A program made the position numbers and the translations under genes. This document shows, piece by piece, positions 47,998-59,176 of a stretch of DNA of 64,000 nucleotides. The notes beneath the pieces were generated by a model. The model did no database searches, was not told the origin of the DNA, and saw nothing but the letters and a program-made list of their open reading frames with translations. Position 1 is the stretch's first letter, and each line of letters begins with the position of its first letter. Source of the DNA: Chlamydiota bacterium (GTDB taxonomy: Bacteria; Chlamydiota; Chlamydiia; Chlamydiales; JAAKFR01); the NCBI GenBank assembly GCA_021772455.1, contig JAJFLY010000015.1:1168-65167 (forward strand), in the 5' to 3' direction.

Positions 47998-48768
47998 TCA
48001 AGTTATTTTTCTAACATAAGCATTCCAACCCGCCTTACGATATTCTTTCGCTTCTAAAACAGGATTTTCCGCTTCATAAATACCACGTCCAACAATGATT
48101 ACATCGCTTTTGTTTTCACAGATGACTTTTTTAGGCGTGAGATAATTTTGCCCAAGCGCATCCCCGCCAGGCGCAAGTTTTACACCAGGTGTCATATGGA
48201 TAAATGCGGGATTTTCTACGAGTTTTTGCACGCAGATAAAGCCGATAACAAAATCGGCATGCTCCTCGGCCCACTCAACTGCTTGTTTTGTGTAGGCACC
48301 CTTCGCAAGGGTTCCTTTTGGGCTCATTTCTGCAAGTAAAAGAAGGCCACGCCCTTTTGGAAGACCGACCTCTTTGAGTCCTTCGATAATCCCCGGTCCG
48401 GGAACGATGTGAGCATTTGTGATGTCGGACCAATCTGAGATGCGATAAATCCCATCGCGGTATTGCCATTTGACGGTGTTGCCTATGTCGGCAAATTTGC
48501 GATCTTCAAAGATAAGAAAATTGTGTTTCTCAGCAAGCGCTTGAAGCTTGTGGGGGAGCTCAGGCGTAAAATTCTCGAGAATATCGATGTGTGTTTTCAA
48601 GACACAGATCTCAGAGCCAAGAGTATCTGCAATATGAAGCAACTCTTCCGCTGTCGTTACATCTGCAGCAATAGAAAGGTTTGTCTGCTTTTGGTCCATC
48701 AACTGAAGGAGACGCTTACCTGTTGGATTTAAGGCATAATCGCTGCGCTGAGAGTAACTTAAATTCAT
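47998..48768 (-). CDS. pyrF: Orotidine-5'-phosphate decarboxylase (eukaryote-type)
   Basis: [23 protein letters not shown] and IVGRGI motifs. Confidence 0.96.
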
Positions 48769-49283
48769 TTTACCTCAAGAAGTTCGCTTAGAGTAAATAG
48801 AGAATGAAGGCGGTAGCCTTTTTCCTCAACACGTTCTCTTCCACCTTGCTGGCGATCGAGTACAACGACAATATCTGTCACCTTTAAGCCTACTTCCTCG
48901 AGCGGATTGATCGTTTCAAAAATACTCATTCCGCTTGTAATAAGATCTTCGATCACAAGGCAATTTTGCCCAGATTCAAACGCCCCTTCGATGATTTTTT
49001 TCGTGCCGTAATTTTTGGCCTCTTTACGGCGCATGACCATAGGGAGATTTTGCTGAACCGAAAGAGCCGTGGCAATCGGCAGCGCCGTATAAGGAACACC
49101 ACAAACACGATCAAATTGACTACCCGCTATTTTTTCCCACATCAGAAAAGCGACCTCTGCAAGAAGCTTAGGATAAGAGATAATAAGGCGAAGATCGATG
49201 TAGATGGGCGATTTAACTCCACTTTTTAGGGTAAAGTCGCCGTGTTGGATCGCGCCAATTTTATGCAGCTCCTGGATTAACAT
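48765..49283 (-). CDS. pyrE: Orotate phosphoribosyltransferase
   Basis: [24 protein letters not shown] and VIEDLITSG motifs. Start at ATG 49283. Confidence 0.95.
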
Positions 49284-50380
49284 TGAAAATACCTCGCAGC
49301 TAAATAGGGATCCCACATCATGCCAACAGCACTCATGGCAACAGTAGCCCCTGCGTTAAAAAATTGATCAAAATGCTCAGGGGCGGTCACACCTCCTGTT
49401 CCCATGATGGTCATGCCAAGCTGTTCTTCTTGGTTCACAGCGTGCGCTTTTTGGATAAAGTCGAGCGCCACTTCACGAATAGGGCCACCGCAAACACCTG
49501 ATTTCAAGCGTTTTTCACCAAGAGCTGGTGTGCCATCTCCTTTGACGACTTTCATACTGACTGTATTAATGCCACAAATCGCTTGAACGCCCCCTTTTGC
49601 AGCGGCGCACATCACCCGCCGTAGCACTTCTTTATCCTCGATCACACCTACTTTGATAATCAACGGCACGGGGCCAATCGCTTTTTTCACCCTAGAAGAG
49701 ATTTCGTAGACAGCCTCAGGGCTGGTAAACAAACTCCCCTCGCACGTTGTCACGTTTGGACAGGAGAGGTCGGCTTCTATGATTTTAGCTCCCCCTTCAA
49801 GGGCTATTTCGGCGGCACGGACAAAATCTTCGTAAAAATCCTCATTTGGGCGAGGCGTGCCGACAATTGAGACGATCATTACCTGCCCAGGAGCTAATGC
49901 TTCGTTGGCACGGGCGATATCTTTGACAAGAAAAGTGCGATCTTTAGAAGGAATGCCAAAAGAGTTTGTTGCAGCGAGGGAGCGCGCATCTTTGGGTGGG
50001 TGCTCAGCCTGCTTAAGGGTCTCTTCGTGGCGGTCGTAGGTAAGGGATCCTAGAGTATCGACGTAGATCATATTCGGAAGAGGATGAGCGGGATGAGGCT
50101 TACTGCGGATCGTTTTATAGGTGACGATATCGAAACCCATTTTGGCAGCAAAGGCAACCCAGCGTGAGTTTAGCAATGGACCTGCTGGAACCCCAAGGGG
50201 ATGTGCAACGAGAAATCCAAGGAAATCAACCCACTCATTTTTAGGAGGGAGGGTGCGCTCTGGGATTTTCCCATCAAAAAATGGGCCCTCTTCAAGATTT
50301 TCTAAATAGCTCCTCTCGATATTGTAAATCGGAGGTTTTTCTGGCCACCATGAAGGAAGTGTTTCAGACATAAAACTCAC
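49277..50380 (-). CDS. pyrD: Dihydroorotate dehydrogenase-like FMN protein (Cys-type, class 1-like)
   Basis: AGP, YKT, NSFG, LSCPN, INT and GTGGV motifs; coupled to pyrE-pyrF. Confidence 0.78.
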
Positions 50381-50398
50381 TTATTATATAGATAAACT

Positions 50399-50653
50399 AT
50401 GCTTACCAAACTTTTTGTCGGCACCCGTTTCACTTCTGAGCTCAAAATGCGCATCGGCAGCGACCTTTCCCCAATGACCGCCATCCCCTATGAAGGGAAG
50501 GAGTACATCGGCTATTACCTCGAGTCAAACCCAACAGTTGCACAGATCCGCACCTGCTGCGATGAATTTCTCATCAAACTGCAGGAGCACTGCCCTGAGC
50601 ACCGTGTTGACAATCTTCCGATTGTTGTTTTTCCTCAAGCGTTCGTCGGGTAA
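50399..50653 (+). CDS. Small hypothetical protein
   Basis: 84-aa ORF with globular composition, divergent from pyrD and convergent with pyrC. Confidence 0.6.
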   Translation: MLTKLFVGTRFTSELKMRIGSDLSPMTAIPYEGKEYIGYYLESNPTVAQIRTCCDEFLIKLQEHCPEHRVDNLPIVVFPQAFVG

Positions 50654-51800
50654 TCGAATAGGCTCTCCCGTCTAGGATCACATATTCGGGCCACCCTCTC
50701 AATGTGCGACCTCGATAAGGGGTCCAGCCACATTTCGATTTGATCATCTCGTCTGTTACCGTTAACTCTCTTTCTAGATCGACCAAAACGATATCGTCAT
50801 TGGGCGGCAAATTAAATATTTTTTGCGGATTGGAATGCGTTAGGTCGATCATCCGATCCAGGGTAAGCTGGCCGTGATAAACAGCGTCGAGCAACAACGG
50901 CAGGAGCGTTTCCACTCCAGGAATTCCAGAGGGCGCTTTTCCAAAGGGTTGGTTTTTCTCTTCTAGTGTGTGGGGAGCGTGATCTGTTCCAATTGTGTCG
51001 ATCGTACCATCGCGGATCCCTTCCCAAAGAGCCTCTTGATCCTCTTTTGAACGGAGCGGCGGATTCATCTGCACAAGTGTTCCAAACTCGGCGTAATCAT
51101 CTTCGCTTAAAAAGAGGTGGTGAGTGGTCGCCTCGGCATAAACTTGTAGCCCCTCTTGCTTAGCAGCGCGTACAAGCGCAACCTCTTCTAGAGTGCTCAT
51201 ATGTAAAATATAGAGCCGAGCGCCATGCTTGCGCGCGAGGGCAATCGCTTTTGTAGTCGCACGAATCGCTGCCTCCTTGGGGCGCATCTGCGAATGGACC
51301 GCAGGATCAGAAGCACCAGCAAATTCTTCACGTTTACGAGCTAAAAGAGCTTCATCTTCGGCATGAACAGCTACGAGCATATTCGCTTCAGCAGCGAGAC
51401 GGAAAGCCTCATCAAGGGCCTCATCATCATCGATCACAAGACCGCCTGTGCTGCATCCCATGAAGATTTTTAGCGCTACGCATGAGCCACTCGCCCCGCT
51501 GATCTGATCAAAATGGTCTTTATCGGCGCCAAAATACAATCCATAACGCAGAGGGATATCAGCGCTTTTCAATTGGGCATCGATCAGCTTTTTTTTCTCT
51601 TCTACCGCTCTAAGAGTTGTGCAGGGAGGAGTATTGTTGGGCATGTCTAACACGGTTGTAATGCCACCATGAATCGCTGCAACCGAAGCTGTCTCCCAGT
51701 CTTCCTTTTGCTCTCCACCAGGGGCACGGAAATGGACGTGGGGATCGATCAGGGCAGGGATTGCGGTAAGGCCGCCAAAATCTAGTTCAGAACGTGTCAT
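50574..51800 (-). CDS. pyrC: Dihydroorotase
   Basis: IDPHVHFR, DMPN, VHAED, MNPPLR and TDHAPH motifs. Start at ATG 51800. Confidence 0.94.
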   Translation of the reverse strand: MTRSELDFGGLTAIPALIDPHVHFRAPGGEQKEDWETASVAAIHGGITTVLDMPNNTPPCTTLRAVEEKKKLIDAQLKSADIPLRYGLYFGADKDHFDQISGASGSCVALKIFMGCSTGGLVIDDDEALDEAFRLAAEANMLVAVHAEDEALLARKREEFAGASDPAVHSQMRPKEAAIRATTKAIALARKHGARLYILHMSTLEEVALVRAAKQEGLQVYAEATTHHLFLSEDDYAEFGTLVQMNPPLRSKEDQEALWEGIRDGTIDTIGTDHAPHTLEEKNQPFGKAPSGIPGVETLLPLLLDAVYHGQLTLDRMIDLTHSNPQKIFNLPPNDDIVLVDLERELTVTDEMIKSKCGWTPYRGRTLRGWPEYVILDGRAYSITRRTLEEKQQSEDCQHGAQGSAPAV

Positions 51801-52233
51801 AGGCAAAACTCTTTTCACAATAGTAACATTTTAACTGGACTACATGGACCCGCTTTTCTAGCTCAAAGTGGGTATGCAGCGCCTCATGATTCGTGACGCA
51901 TCGCTCGTTTGGGCAGCGCAAAACTTTTTTCACCCTTTTAGGAAGCGTGACGGCAAATTTTTTAACACGTTCAAAGCCGCGAATAATGTTAAGTGTTGCT
52001 TTGGGGGCAAAAACGGCGATCTGATTTGCCTCTTCTTCGCTTACCTCGCGCCCTTCAACTTTAATCAAATCCTTGTAACCCATCGTCTTGCTCGGAAGAT
52101 TCAGCCCTAAAGTCACCTGATTATGTTGACCGGCGAGTTTAAGAAGGCGGACAATTCTCATCCCCTGTCCAGCCGGAATATGATCGATTACAGTTCCTTC
52201 ATTGATCGCTGCAACTGAAAGTGTCTTATTCAC
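51787..52233 (-). CDS. pyrI: Aspartate carbamoyltransferase regulatory subunit
   Basis: GTVIDHI motif and Zn site CPNERC...CYYC. Confidence 0.95.
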   Translation of the reverse strand: MNKTLSVAAINEGTVIDHIPAGQGMRIVRLLKLAGQHNQVTLGLNLPSKTMGYKDLIKVEGREVSEEEANQIAVFAPKATLNIIRGFERVKKFAVTLPKRVKKVLRCPNERCVTNHEALHTHFELEKRVHVVQLKCYYCEKSFAYDTF

Positions 52234-53129
52234 GATTCCCCTAATAATTTGCTTAAGAGTGCTTGGCGCACATAGAGGCCATTCTCGGCCTGCGCGAAGT
52301 AGTGGGCATAGTCGGTTTCATCAACCTCACGCGCGATCTCGTTCACCCGAGGTAAGGGATGGAGGACCTTTAAGTTTTTTTTCGCACGTTTTAAGGTCTC
52401 GGTTGTAAGAATGAATTGATCTTTCACGCGCGCATACGCTTCCAAATCAGCAAAGCGCTCTTTTTGGACGCGGGTCATGTAAAGGATGTCGCATTTCCCA
52501 ACCACTTCATCCACGGAATGATGAAATGAAAAAGGGACGCCCGCTTTTTTCAGCTCATCACAAAGAGAGTCGGGTATCGACAATGAAGGTGGGGAGACAA
52601 AATAGAGGCGCACATCGAATTGCTTCAAAGCGTAGACGAGTGAATGGACTGTCCGTCCATGAAGAAGATCCCCTACAAATGCAAGATGGAGGGCGTCGAG
52701 CTTCCCCTGACACTCTTGAATCGTAAAGAGGTCGAGAAGGGTTTGAGTGGGATGTTCATTAGCGCCGTCGCCCGCATTGATCACCGGCTTGTCTGTTGCC
52801 TCGGAAGCGCCGCGTGCAGAGCCTTCAAGGGGGTGGCGAATCACCACAATATCGCAATAGTGGCCTATCACCTTCATTGTATCGTGGAGCGACTCTCCTT
52901 TTTGGGTCGCTATGGCAGTGTCATCAGAAAAACCGATTACCTCACCACCCAAGCGCTTCATCGCCGACTCAAAAGAGAGACGTGTGCGGGTAGAGGGCTC
53001 AAAAAAACAGCTCGCCATTACGCGCCCTTGCAAAATCGGACCTGGAGGCTTTTGTTTCATCTCCAGCGCCTTAGCAAGAATTGTAAGGATCTGCTCTTTA
53101 CTTAACTCTTTGATTGAAATGAGACTCAT
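52230..53129 (-). CDS. pyrB: Aspartate carbamoyltransferase catalytic subunit
   Basis: FEPSTRT, HPTQ and HPLPR motifs. Start at ATG 53129. Confidence 0.97.
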   Translation of the reverse strand: MSLISIKELSKEQILTILAKALEMKQKPPGPILQGRVMASCFFEPSTRTRLSFESAMKRLGGEVIGFSDDTAIATQKGESLHDTMKVIGHYCDIVVIRHPLEGSARGASEATDKPVINAGDGANEHPTQTLLDLFTIQECQGKLDALHLAFVGDLLHGRTVHSLVYALKQFDVRLYFVSPPSLSIPDSLCDELKKAGVPFSFHHSVDEVVGKCDILYMTRVQKERFADLEAYARVKDQFILTTETLKRAKKNLKVLHPLPRVNEIAREVDETDYAHYFAQAENGLYVRQALLSKLLGES

Positions 53130-56100
53130 CGCTTTTCTCCCACAAATTGGTTCCACGCTTTCACCGGCAAATTTTCATCTAATTCAATGAGCGATTGTAA
53201 AAACACTGTTGCAATCTGGAGGTTAGTGATCAGCGGAATATGATGATCGATTGCAAGTCGCCTGATCTTGAAACCGTCGGTTGCCACCTTCGACGAGGCG
53301 ATTCCGCTTGGGATATTAATGATCAGATCGACCTCTTGATCGGTGATCGAGTCAAGGACATTTGGATGTTGCCCAGCGCTCGCCTTAAAGACACACCGCG
53401 ATGCCACACCCTTTTGAGAAAAAAAGTCGTGGGTGCCAGGTGTTGTGTAGATTTTCCAACCGCGCGCTTCCAACTCTTTCAGCTCTTCAAGAAGTTTGCC
53501 TTTTTGCTTCCCACCAATGCTCACAAGGAGACGCTTGCCGCGCACCGTCTGCTCTGTCGCTTCCCACGAGCGGAAAAAAGCATCGAGTAGATTCTCTCCC
53601 AGGCATGCCACCTCACCTGTCGATGCCATCTCAACATGGGCAACTGGATTGGCACCTTTGAGGCGGCTGTATGAGAATTGAGGCGTTTTAATCCCTACAT
53701 AATCGAGATCTAGAGTGTTGTAGTGACGTGGTACATGTTTTCCAAGCATCGTTTCGGTCGCAATTTCGATAAAATTGTGGCCTGTGACTTTGGAAACGAA
53801 TGGAAAAGAGCGCGAGGCGCGCACATTGAGCTCGATCACCTTAATCGCATTCTCTTTGGCGATAAACTGCATGTTGAAAGGGCCTGTAATATTGAGGGCT
53901 TTCACGATTTGGCGCGTAATCAGCTTCGTACGGCGAATTGTTTCGAGATAGAGCTTCTGAGGCGGCAAAACAATCGTCGCATCTCCCGAGTGGACCCCAG
54001 CATTTTCGATGTGCTCCGAAATAGCCTCGATCACCACGTTTCCATTGTGAGCAACGCCGTCGATTTCGAGCTCTTTTGCATTCAAAATAAACTGGGAAAG
54101 GACAACAGGGTGCTCACGCGAAACAATGGTCGCCTCTTCGAGATACTGCTCAAGCTCGCTGCCGTCGTAAATCACATTCATAGCCGCTCCAGAAAGGACA
54201 TACGAGGGGCGTACAAGGACCGGATAGCCAACCTCAGCGGCAAACTGACGGGCTTTATCAAGCGAACTCACCTCGACCCAGGCTGGCTGATCGATCTCAA
54301 GGTCATTCAGAAGCGATGAGAACTTTTGGCGGTTTTCAGCCATATCAATCATCGGAGGAGGCGTTCCCATAATCGGGTAGCCAGCCTCGTGTAAAGGAAG
54401 GGCGAGGTTGTTAGCAATTTGCCCCCCAACAGAGATGATAATCCCACTTGGCGACTCAAAATCAGCGATGTCACGCACACGCTCTTGCGTCAACTCTTCG
54501 AAATAGAGACGGTCAGATTCATCATAGTCAGTTGAGACCGTCTCAGGGTTTGAATTGATCATGATTGCCGGTACATTATGGCGTCTCAAGGTGCGTACCG
54601 TATTCACAGCGCACCAATCAAATTCGACAGACGATCCAATCGCATAAGGCCCCGACCCCATCACAACTGTAGGTGCCTTCTTAGAAGGTTCTAAATCGTT
54701 GTAGGCGCCGTGATAAGTGAGATAAAGGTAGTTCGTTTCAGCATCAAATTCTCCGGCCAATGTGTCAATTTGCTTGATGACAGGCTTGATACCTAGCTCT
54801 AAACGCTTTGTACGTACAGATTCTTCCGTTTCATTGATTAATAGGCCGATCGCTTTATCCGAAAATCCAAACCGTTTTGCCCGTCGCAACACCTCTACAA
54901 GAGGTTTTTCCTTAATCTCTTTCTCAATTCCGACCATTTCAGCAAGATGGTGTAGAAACCATTTGTCGATATGCGAGCTCTCATGAATTTCATCAACAGA
55001 CATCCCCTTTCTAAGCATTTCTGCAATCGCATAGAGGCGACTATCGGTTGCAACTGCAATTTCTTGTTTTGGATTGGGGATCGTATAGGGATAATCGAAG
55101 AGGGAGCAGCAGCCGATATTAAGCATCCGCACTGCTTTTTGGAGCGCTTCGGGAAAAGACCTGCCGATTGCCATCACCTCGCCAACACTTTTCATCTCCG
55201 AACCGATCGTCCGATCGGCAGCGCGGAGCTTGTGGATATCCCAGCGCGGCATTTTAACAACAACATAGTCAAGAGCCGGCTCAAAAAAAGCAGACGTTTG
55301 CTGCGTGACCGAGTTTTTGATCTCGTGAAGCAGATAACCCAAAGCAAGTTTTGCAGCGACAAACGCAAGTGGATAACCCGTTGCTTTAGAAGCGAGTGCG
55401 CTTGAGCGCGAGAGGCGTGCGTTCACCTCGATCACGCGGTAATCGACTTTATTCGGATGGACAGCGTACTGAATGTTGCATTCACCAATTACACCGAGAT
55501 GGCGCACCGTCTTGATCGCTACTTCGCGGAGCATATGATACTCTTCATTACTCAACGTCTGGGAGGGGGCGATGACAATACTTTCACCCGTATGGATCCC
55601 CATTGGATCGAAGTTTTCCATATTACAGACAGTGATCGTGTTCCCATCTCTGTCGCGAACCACTTCGTACTCGATCTCTTTCCAGCCTGTTAGATACTCC
55701 TCGATCAGAATTTGGGGCGCTTTGCTCAAAGCTTCGGTCGCGCGGCTAATCAGCTGAGCTTCGTTCTCAACCCTTCCAGATCCAAGTCCACCGAGAGAGA
55801 ATCCCGAGCGCAACATCAACGGATAGCCAACCTTCGCAGCCGCTTCTCTTGCTTCTTCAAGAGTTGTCGCCGCATAGCTCACAGCCGATTTGACATCAAT
55901 TTGATCAAGAGCCTCTTTAAAAAGCTGACGATCTTCGGTCACCCGAACCGTATCGATCGGCGTCCCTAGCACTTCGATGCCAAATTTGGCCAAAATACCG
56001 CTAGATTCCAGTTGCAGACCCAAATTGAGAGCCGTCTGCCCACCGAAACTAACGGTGATTGCGTCTGGACGCTCTTTTTCAATGATTTTCTCAACGGTTT

Positions 56101-56302
56101 TCTCGTTAAGAGGAAGAAGATAAACCTGATCGGCCATCCCTTTGTCGGTCTGCACAGTCGCAATATTGGGATTCACGAGGATGGTGTAATGCCCCTCCTC
56201 TTTCAGCGCTTTGATCGCCTGCGAGCCCGAGTAATCAAACTCACCCGCTTGGCCAATACGCAGACCCCCAGAACCGAGAATTAAGATTTTTCGTTTAGAC
56301 AT
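53126..56302 (-). CDS. carB: Carbamoyl-phosphate synthase large subunit
   Basis: GQAGEFDYSG, two ATP-grasp domains and a C-terminal MGS domain. Confidence 0.98.
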   Translation of the reverse strand: MSKRKILILGSGGLRIGQAGEFDYSGSQAIKALKEEGHYTILVNPNIATVQTDKGMADQVYLLPLNEKTVEKIIEKERPDAITVSFGGQTALNLGLQLESSGILAKFGIEVLGTPIDTVRVTEDRQLFKEALDQIDVKSAVSYAATTLEEAREAAAKVGYPLMLRSGFSLGGLGSGRVENEAQLISRATEALSKAPQILIEEYLTGWKEIEYEVVRDRDGNTITVCNMENFDPMGIHTGESIVIAPSQTLSNEEYHMLREVAIKTVRHLGVIGECNIQYAVHPNKVDYRVIEVNARLSRSSALASKATGYPLAFVAAKLALGYLLHEIKNSVTQQTSAFFEPALDYVVVKMPRWDIHKLRAADRTIGSEMKSVGEVMAIGRSFPEALQKAVRMLNIGCCSLFDYPYTIPNPKQEIAVATDSRLYAIAEMLRKGMSVDEIHESSHIDKWFLHHLAEMVGIEKEIKEKPLVEVLRRAKRFGFSDKAIGLLINETEESVRTKRLELGIKPVIKQIDTLAGEFDAETNYLYLTYHGAYNDLEPSKKAPTVVMGSGPYAIGSSVEFDWCAVNTVRTLRRHNVPAIMINSNPETVSTDYDESDRLYFEELTQERVRDIADFESPSGIIISVGGQIANNLALPLHEAGYPIMGTPPPMIDMAENRQKFSSLLNDLEIDQPAWVEVSSLDKARQFAAEVGYPVLVRPSYVLSGAAMNVIYDGSELEQYLEEATIVSREHPVVLSQFILNAKELEIDGVAHNGNVVIEAISEHIENAGVHSGDATIVLPPQKLYLETIRRTKLITRQIVKALNITGPFNMQFIAKENAIKVIELNVRASRSFPFVSKVTGHNFIEIATETMLGKHVPRHYNTLDLDYVGIKTPQFSYSRLKGANPVAHVEMASTGEVACLGENLLDAFFRSWEATEQTVRGKRLLVSIGGKQKGKLLEELKELEARGWKIYTTPGTHDFFSQKGVASRCVFKASAGQHPNVLDSITDQEVDLIINIPSGIASSKVATDGFKIRRLAIDHHIPLITNLQIATVFLQSLIELDENLPVKAWNQFVGEKR

Positions 56303-57336
56303 GCATAAAACCTTTCAAAAAACCACTGGGTGTCGGTGGGGCCAGGCGACGCTTCGGGGTGAAACTGCACCGCATAAAACGGAAGCGACTTGTGGGCAAC
56401 CCCTTCGACAGACCCATCATTTAAATTTCGGAAAATCACTTTCCACTCACAGGGAAGACTCTCTTCATCAACCGCATAGCCATGATTTTGGCTCGTAATG
56501 TAACATTTTCTCGTCTCCAAATCCATACACGGCTGATTCTGGCCGCGATGGCCAAATGGAAGCTTATACGTTTTGGCTCCTGCCGCGAGTGCAAGCATTT
56601 GCGAGCCCAAACACACACCAAAAATTGGCTTTTTCTTCTTCATCACCTTTTTTAGAATCTCAATTGTCTCCGCGCACTGAATCGGATCGCCGGGGCCATT
56701 CGAGAGGAAAACCCCATCAAATTCATCTTCAGAGTAGTCGTAATTATGTGGAACGCGGACAACTTCAACTCCTAATTTCTCCAGATGGCGGAGCATGCTC
56801 TCTTTCATCCCACAATCAACTGCGATAACCCGCTTGTTTCCGCTCCCATAAACAGTTTTTTGAGAAATCGAAACTTTAGCCACCAAATGCTCAAGATTGG
56901 GGTCTTTGAATGACGTCACTTCTTGTGTTTCAGAAATCGCTCCCAAAACCGTTCCATCCGCTCGCAGCATCTTCGTAAGCGCGCGTGTATCAACCTCGGT
57001 CAAAAGAGGAATTCCCTCCTTTTCAAGCCATTCCTTTAATGAGACTAAACCGGCGTGGTGACTCCAGTTTTCGCAACACTCATTCACAATCACCCCAGCT
57101 GCATGGATTTTTTTTGATTCCCAAACAGCCTTGTCAGCAACACCATAGTTTCCGATAAGCGGAAAAGTGAAAACGAGGATTTGATCAGCAAAGGAGGGGT
57201 CGGTAAGGCTCTCATAGTAGCCACACATGCCTGTTGTGAAGACCACTTCTCCAAAGAAGGTTCTTCCCGCCTGCCATTCAGGCGCCATCCCGTCGAAGAC
57301 GGGCCCATTTTGTAAAATTAACTTGTTTTTCTTCAT
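56281..57336 (-). CDS. carA: Carbamoyl-phosphate synthase small subunit
   Basis: SNGPGDP, GVCLG, QNHG and QFHPE motifs. Confidence 0.97.
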   Translation of the reverse strand: MKKNKLILQNGPVFDGMAPEWQAGRTFFGEVVFTTGMCGYYESLTDPSFADQILVFTFPLIGNYGVADKAVWESKKIHAAGVIVNECCENWSHHAGLVSLKEWLEKEGIPLLTEVDTRALTKMLRADGTVLGAISETQEVTSFKDPNLEHLVAKVSISQKTVYGSGNKRVIAVDCGMKESMLRHLEKLGVEVVRVPHNYDYSEDEFDGVFLSNGPGDPIQCAETIEILKKVMKKKKPIFGVCLGSQMLALAAGAKTYKLPFGHRGQNQPCMDLETRKCYITSQNHGYAVDEESLPCEWKVIFRNLNDGSVEGVAHKSLPFYAVQFHPEASPGPTDTQWFFERFYACLNEKS

Positions 57337-57345
57337 GACCTTGGC

Positions 57346-57376
57346 AAAAAAAAAGCCATCCGCTAGAGGATGGCTT
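57346..57376 (-). terminator. Intrinsic terminator in the carA leader (candidate attenuator)
   Basis: Minus strand aagccatcc-tctagc-ggatggc followed by 9 T, ending 9 nt before the carA ATG. Confidence 0.85.
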
Positions 57377-57413
57377 GATTAACATTAAATCTTTGAAAAA
57401 GTTTCGGTTTCAT
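57363..57413 (-). CDS. Putative pyr operon leader peptide MKPKLFQRFNVNQAIL
   Basis: 16-codon ORF with its TAG stop in the terminator loop and an internal T-run. Not in the ORF track. Confidence 0.55.
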   Translation of the reverse strand: MKPKLFQRFNVNQAIL

Positions 57414-57421
57414 TAGAAGAA

Positions 57422-57450
57422 ATCATACCGAAAATGGATTTTCCCCTCAA
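57422..57450 (-). promoter_or_regulatory. Candidate sigma66 promoter of the pyr operon
   Basis: TTGAGG (57450-45), 17-nt spacer, TATGAT (57427-22); 8 nt before the leader ATG. Confidence 0.6.
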
Positions 57451-58424
57451 GGAGTATTTCTAACAAGCATAGAGGTAGAAGAAGGAGTGTAGTTCTTGAG
57501 AATCTCTTCAATCGCCTCAATCCACTCGGGGCGGCGGTTGAGAGAGGGAAGGCGAAAGGGGGTGACCCCTTGCTTTCGAATAATCGGAAGATAATCTTGC
57601 TCAATTTCAAACAAAGTTTCGATATGGTCAGAAGTGAAGCTAATCGGGATGAAAAGAACGTTTTTACGCCCTTTTCGGTAGTCTTCGATCTGTTCGCACA
57701 CCTCTTGAGTATAAGGACGGAGCCATTCGCCTGGCCCAAACTTCGATTGGTAAGCAAGCAGCGACTCTGTGTGAGGAAAGCCTTTCATTACATTTTCGTA
57801 GGAAAGCTGGCACTCGTAGGCGTAGAGATCACCCTGATCGACAAAGCTTTGAGGCACACCGTGCGCTGAGAAGAAGAAAAGCGTTTCTTCTTCTTTGAGG
57901 TTTTTCTCCTTTAAGTAGGAGCGGATCGTCTGTTGAGTTACCTCGATAAATGAGGGGTGGGAGGGGTACGATTTGACCCATTTGAGCTTATTAAGTGCTT
58001 TTTCGGAGAGCTTATTTTTAAAAAGGCGCGCAATACTTCCCGTTGTAGCGTAAGTAAACTGGGGAAACATGGGAAAAACACGGATTTCCTCCGCATCGAG
58101 CGCTTCTATCGCTGCGAGCGATTCTGCGTGTGTGGTCGGTAGGTAGCGGTGGAAGGTGAGAACGGGGGCATTTAGCCGGGCACGCAAAGCTTCTGCTACA
58201 AATTCGGTATCTCCGTAGATGGGTGATTTGCCCCCGATCATCTCGTAATCGGCAGCGACTTTGACGGAACGCTTTTTGGCAATGCGCCGAAAGAGATAAT
58301 TGTTAAACACTTTCGGCAATTTTGTACGCACAACATCGCGGTCAGTAAGAAGGGTGGATAAGAATGGCTCGATTTCAGATAGCGAACGGGGTCCGCCAAA
58401 ATTTACGATGAGATAGGCTGTCAT
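57447..58424 (-). CDS. hemH: Ferrochelatase
   Basis: NFGGP, GGKSP, FSAHGVP, YQSKFG...WL.P and DHIETLFE motifs. Confidence 0.96.
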   Translation of the reverse strand: MTAYLIVNFGGPRSLSEIEPFLSTLLTDRDVVRTKLPKVFNNYLFRRIAKKRSVKVAADYEMIGGKSPIYGDTEFVAEALRARLNAPVLTFHRYLPTTHAESLAAIEALDAEEIRVFPMFPQFTYATTGSIARLFKNKLSEKALNKLKWVKSYPSHPSFIEVTQQTIRSYLKEKNLKEEETLFFFSAHGVPQSFVDQGDLYAYECQLSYENVMKGFPHTESLLAYQSKFGPGEWLRPYTQEVCEQIEDYRKGRKNVLFIPISFTSDHIETLFEIEQDYLPIIRKQGVTPFRLPSLNRRPEWIEAIEEILKNYTPSSTSMLVRNTP

Positions 58425-58453
58425 GAAAGAAGTTTTAGTGTATGGTCGAAATT

Positions 58454-59176
58454 ATGAAAAGAATTCTTCTTTTTTTTCTGCTTTTTTTTGTTGGATGTAG
58501 CTCTCCTACCCCAAAACTCGGCTCTTACTCAATCGGTAGAGACCCTACATGGTTTCCTTTGCGGTTAGAATCCATGGTAGTCAATGTTAATGGCTTTACA
58601 AATGCTCTTGTACAGGAGCTTGCAAAAGTGGAGGGCAAAAACTTCCAAATCGTCGATATTAGCTGGACCGGACTCTTTGAAGGACTGGAAAAGCATGAAT
58701 ACGCCGGCATCTTCACATCGCTTGATCCCAACATCATAACAGATGGAACCTATAGCTTTTCAAATCCTTTCCTATTACTTGGACCTGTACTTGTCGTTCC
58801 TGCTGATTCACATGCCACTTCTTTAGACGATTTGAAGGGCTCCACTGTTGGCGTTTATCAGTACGACGATTCGGTATTAATCGCCCAACAACACCCGTCG
58901 ATTTTGATGGAAATGTACGAGCATATTCCAAATGGCCTCGAGGCTGTTGCTGATGGAAAAGTGGCAGGAGCTTTGATTCCAAATCTGGAAGCGCGTGCTC
59001 TTGTTGATACTGAAAAATTAAAAATCGTCACCCCGCCCCTTTCGAATAAGGGTCTACGTCTCATCACATTGAAGGGACGGCACGAGTCGCTGATCAAACA
59101 CTTCAACCGCGGCCTTGAAAAGCTACAACATGAGAGTTCATACAAAAAGACGCGCACACATTTCGGGATCAAATGA
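58454..59176 (+). CDS. Amino-acid ABC transporter substrate-binding lipoprotein (SBP family 3)
   Basis: Lipobox FVGC and ISWTGLFEGL...FSNPF pattern; divergent from hemH. Confidence 0.8.
   Translation: MKRILLFFLLFFVGCSSPTPKLGSYSIGRDPTWFPLRLESMVVNVNGFTNALVQELAKVEGKNFQIVDISWTGLFEGLEKHEYAGIFTSLDPNIITDGTYSFSNPFLLLGPVLVVPADSHATSLDDLKGSTVGVYQYDDSVLIAQQHPSILMEMYEHIPNGLEAVADGKVAGALIPNLEARALVDTEKLKIVTPPLSNKGLRLITLKGRHESLIKHFNRGLEKLQHESSYKKTRTHFGIK

Follow-up and report, generated by a model that had tools for sequence, protein, structure and literature searches.

In Escherichia coli and Salmonella, the pyrimidine genes of the pyrBI operon (with its leader pyrL) and of rph-pyrE lie behind a single intrinsic terminator with no antiterminator, and a ribosome that translates up to or through this terminator blocks it, the outcome being set by how close the ribosome is to the RNA polymerase. 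In this study, we analysed a leader of similar layout in front of carA, the first gene of a pyrimidine operon, in a stretch of 64,000 nucleotides (nt) from a Chlamydiota bacterium (GCA_021772455.1, contig JAJFLY010000015.1), hereafter the window, whose positions serve as coordinates throughout. We consider that this leader is probably a cis-acting, one-hairpin, ribosome-dependent transcription attenuator for carAB-pyrBICDEF in a family of environmental chlamydiae. By analogy with the described systems, the best reading is that it represents a leaderless, compact form of known pyrimidine attenuation logic.

The Pseudomonas carA leader is longer, is not leaderless and is combined with ArgR control, and it comes from a different phylum than the chlamydial one. 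For Pseudomonas aeruginosa, one report (PMC4997734) describes pyrimidine control of carAB by attenuation, with a leader peptide encoded from the promoter region. The likeness to our locus, carA under attenuation with a leader peptide, thus comes from the description and not from the sequences. An earlier note on the window, made from its letters, had known of no such element in Chlamydiota; our literature search, with supplements outside its coverage, likewise found no description of a chlamydial carA leader, although the kind of control is known from P. aeruginosa. In mycobacteria, leaderless short open reading frames (ORFs) encoding polycysteine attenuate operons, according to Canestrari et al. 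(bioRxiv 10.1101/834739). As we propose for our locus, the leaderless short ORF stands first in the operon and the position of the ribosome controls the downstream genes. Control in mycobacteria is translational: consecutive Cys codons let the ORF respond to cysteine, and a sequestered ribosome-binding site is released. The chlamydial leaders lack a Cys tract and have an intrinsic terminator hairpin with its U tract instead.

The comparison with pyrBI and pyrE showed both shared and differing features. A terminator between the promoter and the first gene with no further promoter behind it, an ORF reaching to or near the 5' arm of the hairpin and the lack of an antiterminator helix are all found in the chlamydial sequence, as expected of the pyrBI type. 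The differences are that the chlamydial ORF is predicted to have neither leader nor Shine-Dalgarno sequence, that the whole leader takes up only 59-78 nt, that a conserved U-rich pause region is lacking and that the stop codon usually lies shortly before the stem or in the loop. In addition, the chlamydial element would control a carA-led operon of eight genes, and it has no sequence relation to the enterobacterial leaders, as judged by the lack of an Rfam match. In the Rfam scan no family reached its gathering score (best, Phe_leader with 24.2 bits against 55), and the weak matches (Phe_leader, csRNA, RprA and others) fell on the terminator. A PyrR-type attenuator is not indicated: the scan returned no PyrR element (which we take to be RF00515) at E values up to 10, and a search of the whole genome, including the window, with NF003549 did not find PyrR (best 24.3 bits against a cut-off of 138), which extends to the genome the earlier statement that the window holds no pyrR. 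Attenuators of the trpL, pheL or hisL type do not fit either, with no codon run in the leaders and one helix in place of the 1:2, 2:3 and 3:4 set.

The leader in the window consists of the following parts.

57445..57450, minus strand: -35-like hexamer TTGAGG, overlapping the hemH stop codon TGA (57449-57447)
57422..57427, minus strand: -10-like hexamer TATGAT, separated from the -35 by a 17-nt spacer
57413..57414, minus strand: predicted transcription start, either the A preceding the ATG or the A of the ATG, judged from the promoter geometry
57363..57413, minus strand: upstream ORF MKPKLFQRFNVNQAIL followed by TAG, 16 codons, predicted to be leaderless
57353..57376, minus strand: terminator hairpin AAGCCATCC / TCTAGC / GGATGGCTT, 9 bp, 5 of them G-C
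57346..57354, minus strand: tract of nine U, the first two of which belong to the stem

Every feature of the leader, of hemH and of carA in the window lies on the minus strand. The leader ATG (57413-57411) sits 8 nt past the -10 hexamer, the TAG (57365-57363) lies in the 6-nt loop TCTAGC, and 9 nt (GCCAAGGTC) separate the T9 from the carA ATG at 57336. The earlier note had described the promoter with its spacer, the ORF, the TAG in the loop, the hairpin, the T9 and the 9-nt gap, and all of these details are correct; it was silent on the overlap of the -35 hexamer with the hemH stop codon. TTGAGG/TATGAT is the sole promoter-like site in 56800-58800, and shuffled sequences average 2.2 such sites, indicating that the promoter match taken alone is not significant. 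The fold z-score of the leader in the window is only -2.3. It is therefore conservation in relatives, and not the single sequence, that places the element beyond chance.

We took carA loci from 40 relatives and compared their upstream regions. A covariance model (R1) was built from 20 leaders and run on the window's own genome, on its family (f1) and on a sample of the order. The family comprises 29 genomes, 24 of them with a carA orthologue; the element stands before carA in 22 of these 24, in each case once per genome and directly ahead of the gene. In the 5 family genomes without a carA orthologue, R1 gave no match. Outside the family, one genome of family f11 (G034, locus L020) has the element, and these 23 leaders (22 of f1 and 1 of f11), from 15 genera, form our conservation set. 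In the window's own genome, the stem pattern and R1 each matched the carA site alone, so no regulon of such sites was found. In the sample of the order, 7 of 151 genomes matched R1, and two of these matches (L036 and L037) are ordinary gene-end terminators away from carA, indicating that R1 is unspecific outside the family. At 7 element loci no hemH lies within 1.5 kb upstream, and at 2 more the hemH-carA gap is 545-645 nt. Since the element is kept before carA at loci lacking an upstream hemH, it belongs to carA and not to hemH.

The alignment of the leaders showed a conserved anatomy, consisting of a sigma-70-like promoter, an ATG 8-10 nt past the -10, a short ORF, a stem of 7-9 bp, T8-9 and carA. 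The motif TTGNNN-N17/18-TANNNT was found in 22 of the 23 leaders, which supports the claim that the leader has its own promoter. The distance from the -10 to the leader ATG is 8 nt in 10 leaders, 9 nt in 9, and 10, 13 and 24 nt in one each, and thus falls within 8-10 nt in 20 of 23. The A, T and G of this ATG are invariant alignment columns, and in 22 of the 23 leaders an A precedes it (AATG). Averaged over pairs of leaders, identity is 37% in the body (ATG to stem), 90% in the stem plus T-run and 33% in the loop. Inspection of the leader listing by eye revealed no consistent inverted repeat or operator around the start site.

The stem is paired in 96% of cells across 20 sequences, compared with only 24-56% in slid controls. 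Two of its pairs show compensatory changes (G-C to A-U and U-A to C-G), and 4 of the 9 pairs never vary. RNAalifold on the 20 leaders predicted the terminator helix and no second conserved helix, and thus no antiterminator. Nine T make up the T-run in 21 of 23 leaders and eight T in the other 2; in the window's own genome, T9 occurs at just 4 of 56 strict terminator-like sites. The T-run ends 0-26 nt from the carA start (19 leaders measured), so each carA transcript must pass the terminator, as had been claimed for the window.

We then compared the reading frames of the 23 leaders. In 22 of 23 leaders, the frame of the ATG meets no stop codon more than 12 nt ahead of the stem, whereas the other two frames stay open as far in 13 and 11. 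Shuffled bodies give an expectation of 10.5 (Poisson-binomial P 3e-7). With one locus per genus, 15 of 15 are open against 7 and 8 in the other frames (product of shuffle probabilities 3e-6); the related genomes behind these figures are not fully independent, though their bodies are near random identity. Nine of the stops begin 2-10 nt ahead of the stem, 9 lie in the loop, and 4 ORFs cross the terminator. Among the last, those of L015 and L023 overlap the carA start with their stop codons (as ATGA and GTGA), which in sequence is a classic sign of translational coupling. The peptides have only Met-Lys in common, range from 5 to 39 codons and contain no codon run, with just 4 Cys residues counted. 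These results indicate that any function of the ORF lies in the act of translation. The alignment of carA upstream regions that the earlier note had proposed as a check thus gave a conserved ORF frame and a conserved hairpin with two covarying pairs, while the peptide sequence itself is not conserved. The idea that the ORF arose by duplication of the carA 5' end was dropped; the shared ATGAAR is a common gene start.

Translation without a leader appears plausible in this genome. Among 1133 crudely called long ORFs, the motif TTGNNN-N16-18-TANNNT ends 7, 8 and 9 nt before the first ATG in 11, 15 and 12 cases, 38 in total, and at distances of 13-23 nt it mostly occurs in 0-6 cases. One example at 7-9 nt lies in the window's contig (C7, minus strand). 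This distribution suggests that the genome may have dozens of leaderless mRNAs; most genes instead show a Shine-Dalgarno peak 5-9 nt upstream. For Chlamydia pneumoniae, a differential RNA sequencing study reports 5 leaderless mRNAs (PMC3333780). The base before the ATG in the 38 candidates, counted by eye, is T in 22, C in 8, A in 6 and G in 2, compared with A in 22 of the 23 leaders. In a Saccharibacteria metagenome-assembled genome (L047), TATACT lies 9 nt before the carA ATG with no leader, and carA there looks as if it were leaderless in another phylum.

From the conserved layout we infer a transcription start, translation of the short ORF, termination at the hairpin and a race between ribosome and polymerase. 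The sigma-70-type promoter would start an RNA with the AUG at its first or second base, allowing leaderless translation with no Shine-Dalgarno sequence. The 5' arm of the strong intrinsic terminator follows 31-47 nt past the AUG, and its U9 would end at the carA start. By default, the polymerase would reach the terminator before a ribosome is in place, releasing an RNA of 59-78 nt. If the polymerase were slowed, the translating ribosome would get to the ORF stop and, given where the stops fall (shortly ahead of the stem, within the loop or farther on), cover the 5' arm. With the 5' arm covered, the hairpin would be blocked and the polymerase would continue into carA. As judged from the alignment, the sole conserved actor besides the hairpin is the translatable ORF, which would deliver the ribosome to the 5' arm.

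Li et al. 2015 (PMC4824070) provide a measure for these steps. There, termination fell from about 90% to below 10% when a stop codon stood 5 bp ahead of the terminator, and the hairpin could fold only with 10-15 nt of RNA free between it and the A site. With the terminator 30 bp past the AUG, its efficiency was mostly retained unless the polymerase paused, as in pyrBI. Since the first ribosome cannot, by the same account, catch the polymerase so early, termination would be the default and readthrough would occur when the polymerase is slow.

The likeliest cause of slowing would be low uridine triphosphate (UTP) while nine consecutive U are added. The terminator T9 tract is the only conserved U feature of the leaders. 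The earlier note had taken T-runs within the ORF as UTP-sensitive pause sites, but these are not conserved, and the leader bodies are A-rich, at 42% A and 29% T; T-runs of three or more number 32 in the 23 leaders, against 46 A-runs. The U9 is thus the only candidate for a UTP-dependent step. UTP as the signal, proposed by analogy, is a tentative assignment that we expect to fail somewhat more readily than to hold.

Transcripts reading in from hemH would meet the same terminator, since no terminator separates hemH from the leader (70 nt lie between the end of hemH and the hairpin in the window). Such transcripts should terminate, because the AUG is internal in them and has no Shine-Dalgarno sequence, and one hairpin would then double as hemH terminator and carA attenuator. 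Taken further, the element might be a minimal, protein-free, one-hairpin nucleotide sensor with the U9 as a UTP-dependent timer and the 5'-terminal AUG as a gate, a proposal we regard as speculative and rather unlikely as a whole. The timer would work because the hairpin closes only after the U's have been added, so that low UTP would give the ribosome time to occupy the 5' arm. Through the gate, only transcripts from the carA promoter would be translated and able to escape, and those read in from hemH would be terminated. These bacteria are probably able to import host nucleotides as well as to make pyrimidines. If the leader acts as a switch on the de novo operon, it would therefore reveal how they sense the host's nucleotide supply. 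The element would also be a tractable model of leaderless translation coupled to termination, because it is short, would need no protein factor and occurs in 15 genera.

Several observations weigh against attenuation by a ribosome on the leader. According to PMC4824070, 100 nt are normally too short a distance for a ribosome to catch up with the polymerase, so the model needs a putative polymerase pause. Owing to the A-rich bodies, a U-rich pause region before the hairpin in the style of pyrBI is not conserved. The ORF had been called probably leaderless, which agrees with an ATG fixed at the predicted start and a frame open in 22 of 23 leaders; the ATGs of L012 and L020, however, lie 13 and 24 nt past the -10, so these two are not strictly leaderless. 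In L007, a member of the same genus as the window, the ORF is only 5 codons long and stops 27 nt before the stem. In genus g6 and in 5 genomes of 5 other families, carA occurs without the element. Finally, the stem is not confined to carA. A search of metagenome contigs for the stem motif with T8 found it in at least 120 stretches; among the matches listed, 119 of 121 sites with the stem are not at carA and 2 precede it, so the stem alone is a common sequence of terminators. At each of the two new carA-linked sites, an ATG-led ORF ends at the stem or in the loop. The promoter-ATG-ORF geometry was found at 1 of 118 sites with sufficient upstream sequence for this test among the matches listed, and that one is carA-linked, indicating that the geometry is not a by-product of the terminator.

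Both f1 exceptions with carA and no element belong to genus g6 (L014 and L018). They have no leader ORF or hairpin, and with the same promoter geometry it is the carA ATG that lies 8-9 nt past the -10. The attenuator may have been either deleted there or inserted elsewhere. A third g6 genome (G171, 79% complete) yielded no carA with the query used.

Among the other explanations, the one that survives best is a device that delivers ribosomes to carA without sensing a metabolite. The terminator would be leaky, or would serve hemH, while the ORF unfolds the hairpin and hands its ribosomes to carA, by coupling or by termination-reinitiation, and the U tract binds ribosomal protein S1. In 12 of 23 leaders, counted by eye, carA starts 0-6 nt past the T-run with no room for a Shine-Dalgarno sequence, and the leaders with longer spacers (L008, L022 and L023) have a GAGG-type motif of their own. 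In the window's own genome, most other genes use a Shine-Dalgarno sequence. The overlaps of the L015 and L023 ORFs with the carA start also agree with such delivery. The 3' arm sequence GGATGG is a doubtful Shine-Dalgarno candidate for carA, as it matches GGAGG badly and its distance from the ATG differs widely among leaders, by estimate roughly 9-26 nt. Ribosome delivery does not account for the retention, in 15 genera, of a complete intrinsic terminator with its invariant T9 in place of just any hairpin, and the g6 carA has the same promoter geometry without ORF or hairpin. We therefore consider it unlikely in place of the attenuator; it is compatible with attenuation and may form a second layer of it.

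Control of the terminator in trans appears more improbable still. Here an RNA-binding protein would act on the hairpin, or the 59-78 nt transcript would itself act as a small RNA (sRNA), and the ORF would be incidental or encode a small protein. In its favour, the stem is unusually fixed (90% identity, 4 of 9 pairs invariant), and the short terminated RNA is the predicted default product. An sRNA from the carA 5' region has been proposed for Pseudomonas syringae, according to PMC4997734. Against this, PyrR was not found in the genome, no Rfam family reached threshold, and apart from the stem and the ATG the leaders share no site to which a ligand or protein could bind, the loop being 33% identical. 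The peptide is not conserved beyond its Met-Lys, and one element per genome leaves no regulon of such sites.

That the hairpin is merely the hemH terminator, with the promoter-like site and the ORF there by chance, is very improbable: hemH has no terminator of its own before the hairpin, the promoter match is no better than in shuffles and the same stem ends other genes (L036, L037 and the 119 of 121 metagenome sites among the matches listed), but the element also stands at the 7 carA loci without an upstream hemH, promoter geometry with ATG and the ORF are each kept in 22 of 23 leaders, and the testable ordinary terminators with this stem lack that geometry, the single hit in the 118 listed being carA-linked.

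Attenuation by a translating ribosome thus remains our preferred account of the leader. The genes around it in the window are as follows.

57447..58424, minus strand: hemH (ferrochelatase; Pfam Ferrochelatase, E 6e-78), upstream of the leader and co-directional
56281..57336, minus strand: carA (carbamoyl-phosphate synthase small chain; Pfam CPSase_sm_chain and GATase)
53126-56302, minus strand: carB (Pfam)
52230-53156, minus strand: pyrB (Pfam)
51787-52233, minus strand: pyrI (Pfam)
50574-51818, minus strand: pyrC (NCBIfam)
49277-50380, minus strand: pyrD-like gene (NCBIfam, weak match)
48765-49316, minus strand: pyrE (NCBIfam)
47998-48768, minus strand: pyrF (NCBIfam)

The rest of the operon after carA spans 47998..56302 on the minus strand, and glgC comes after pyrF. 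With the predicted starts of the ORF list, the overlaps are 22 nt for carA/carB, 31 nt for carB/pyrB, 4 nt for pyrB/pyrI and 32 nt for pyrI/pyrC. A gap of about 190 nt lies between pyrC and the gene in the pyrD position. This gene, of 367 aa, scored no more than 69 bits with dihydroorotate dehydrogenase models (cut-off 269), a weak match, and its product appears to be a divergent enzyme.

Plain gene-end terminators with the stem GCCAYCC/GGRTGGC and T8-9 are also found in another chlamydial family (L036 and L037). In the window's own genome (G000), two other terminator-like hairpins with T7 abut the start region of the next long ORF, at G000:C15:11751-11779 (plus strand) and G000:C36:34237-34263 (minus strand). 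Past the C36 hairpin come TATCAT and, after 8 nt, an ATG, which gives another leaderless-looking start.

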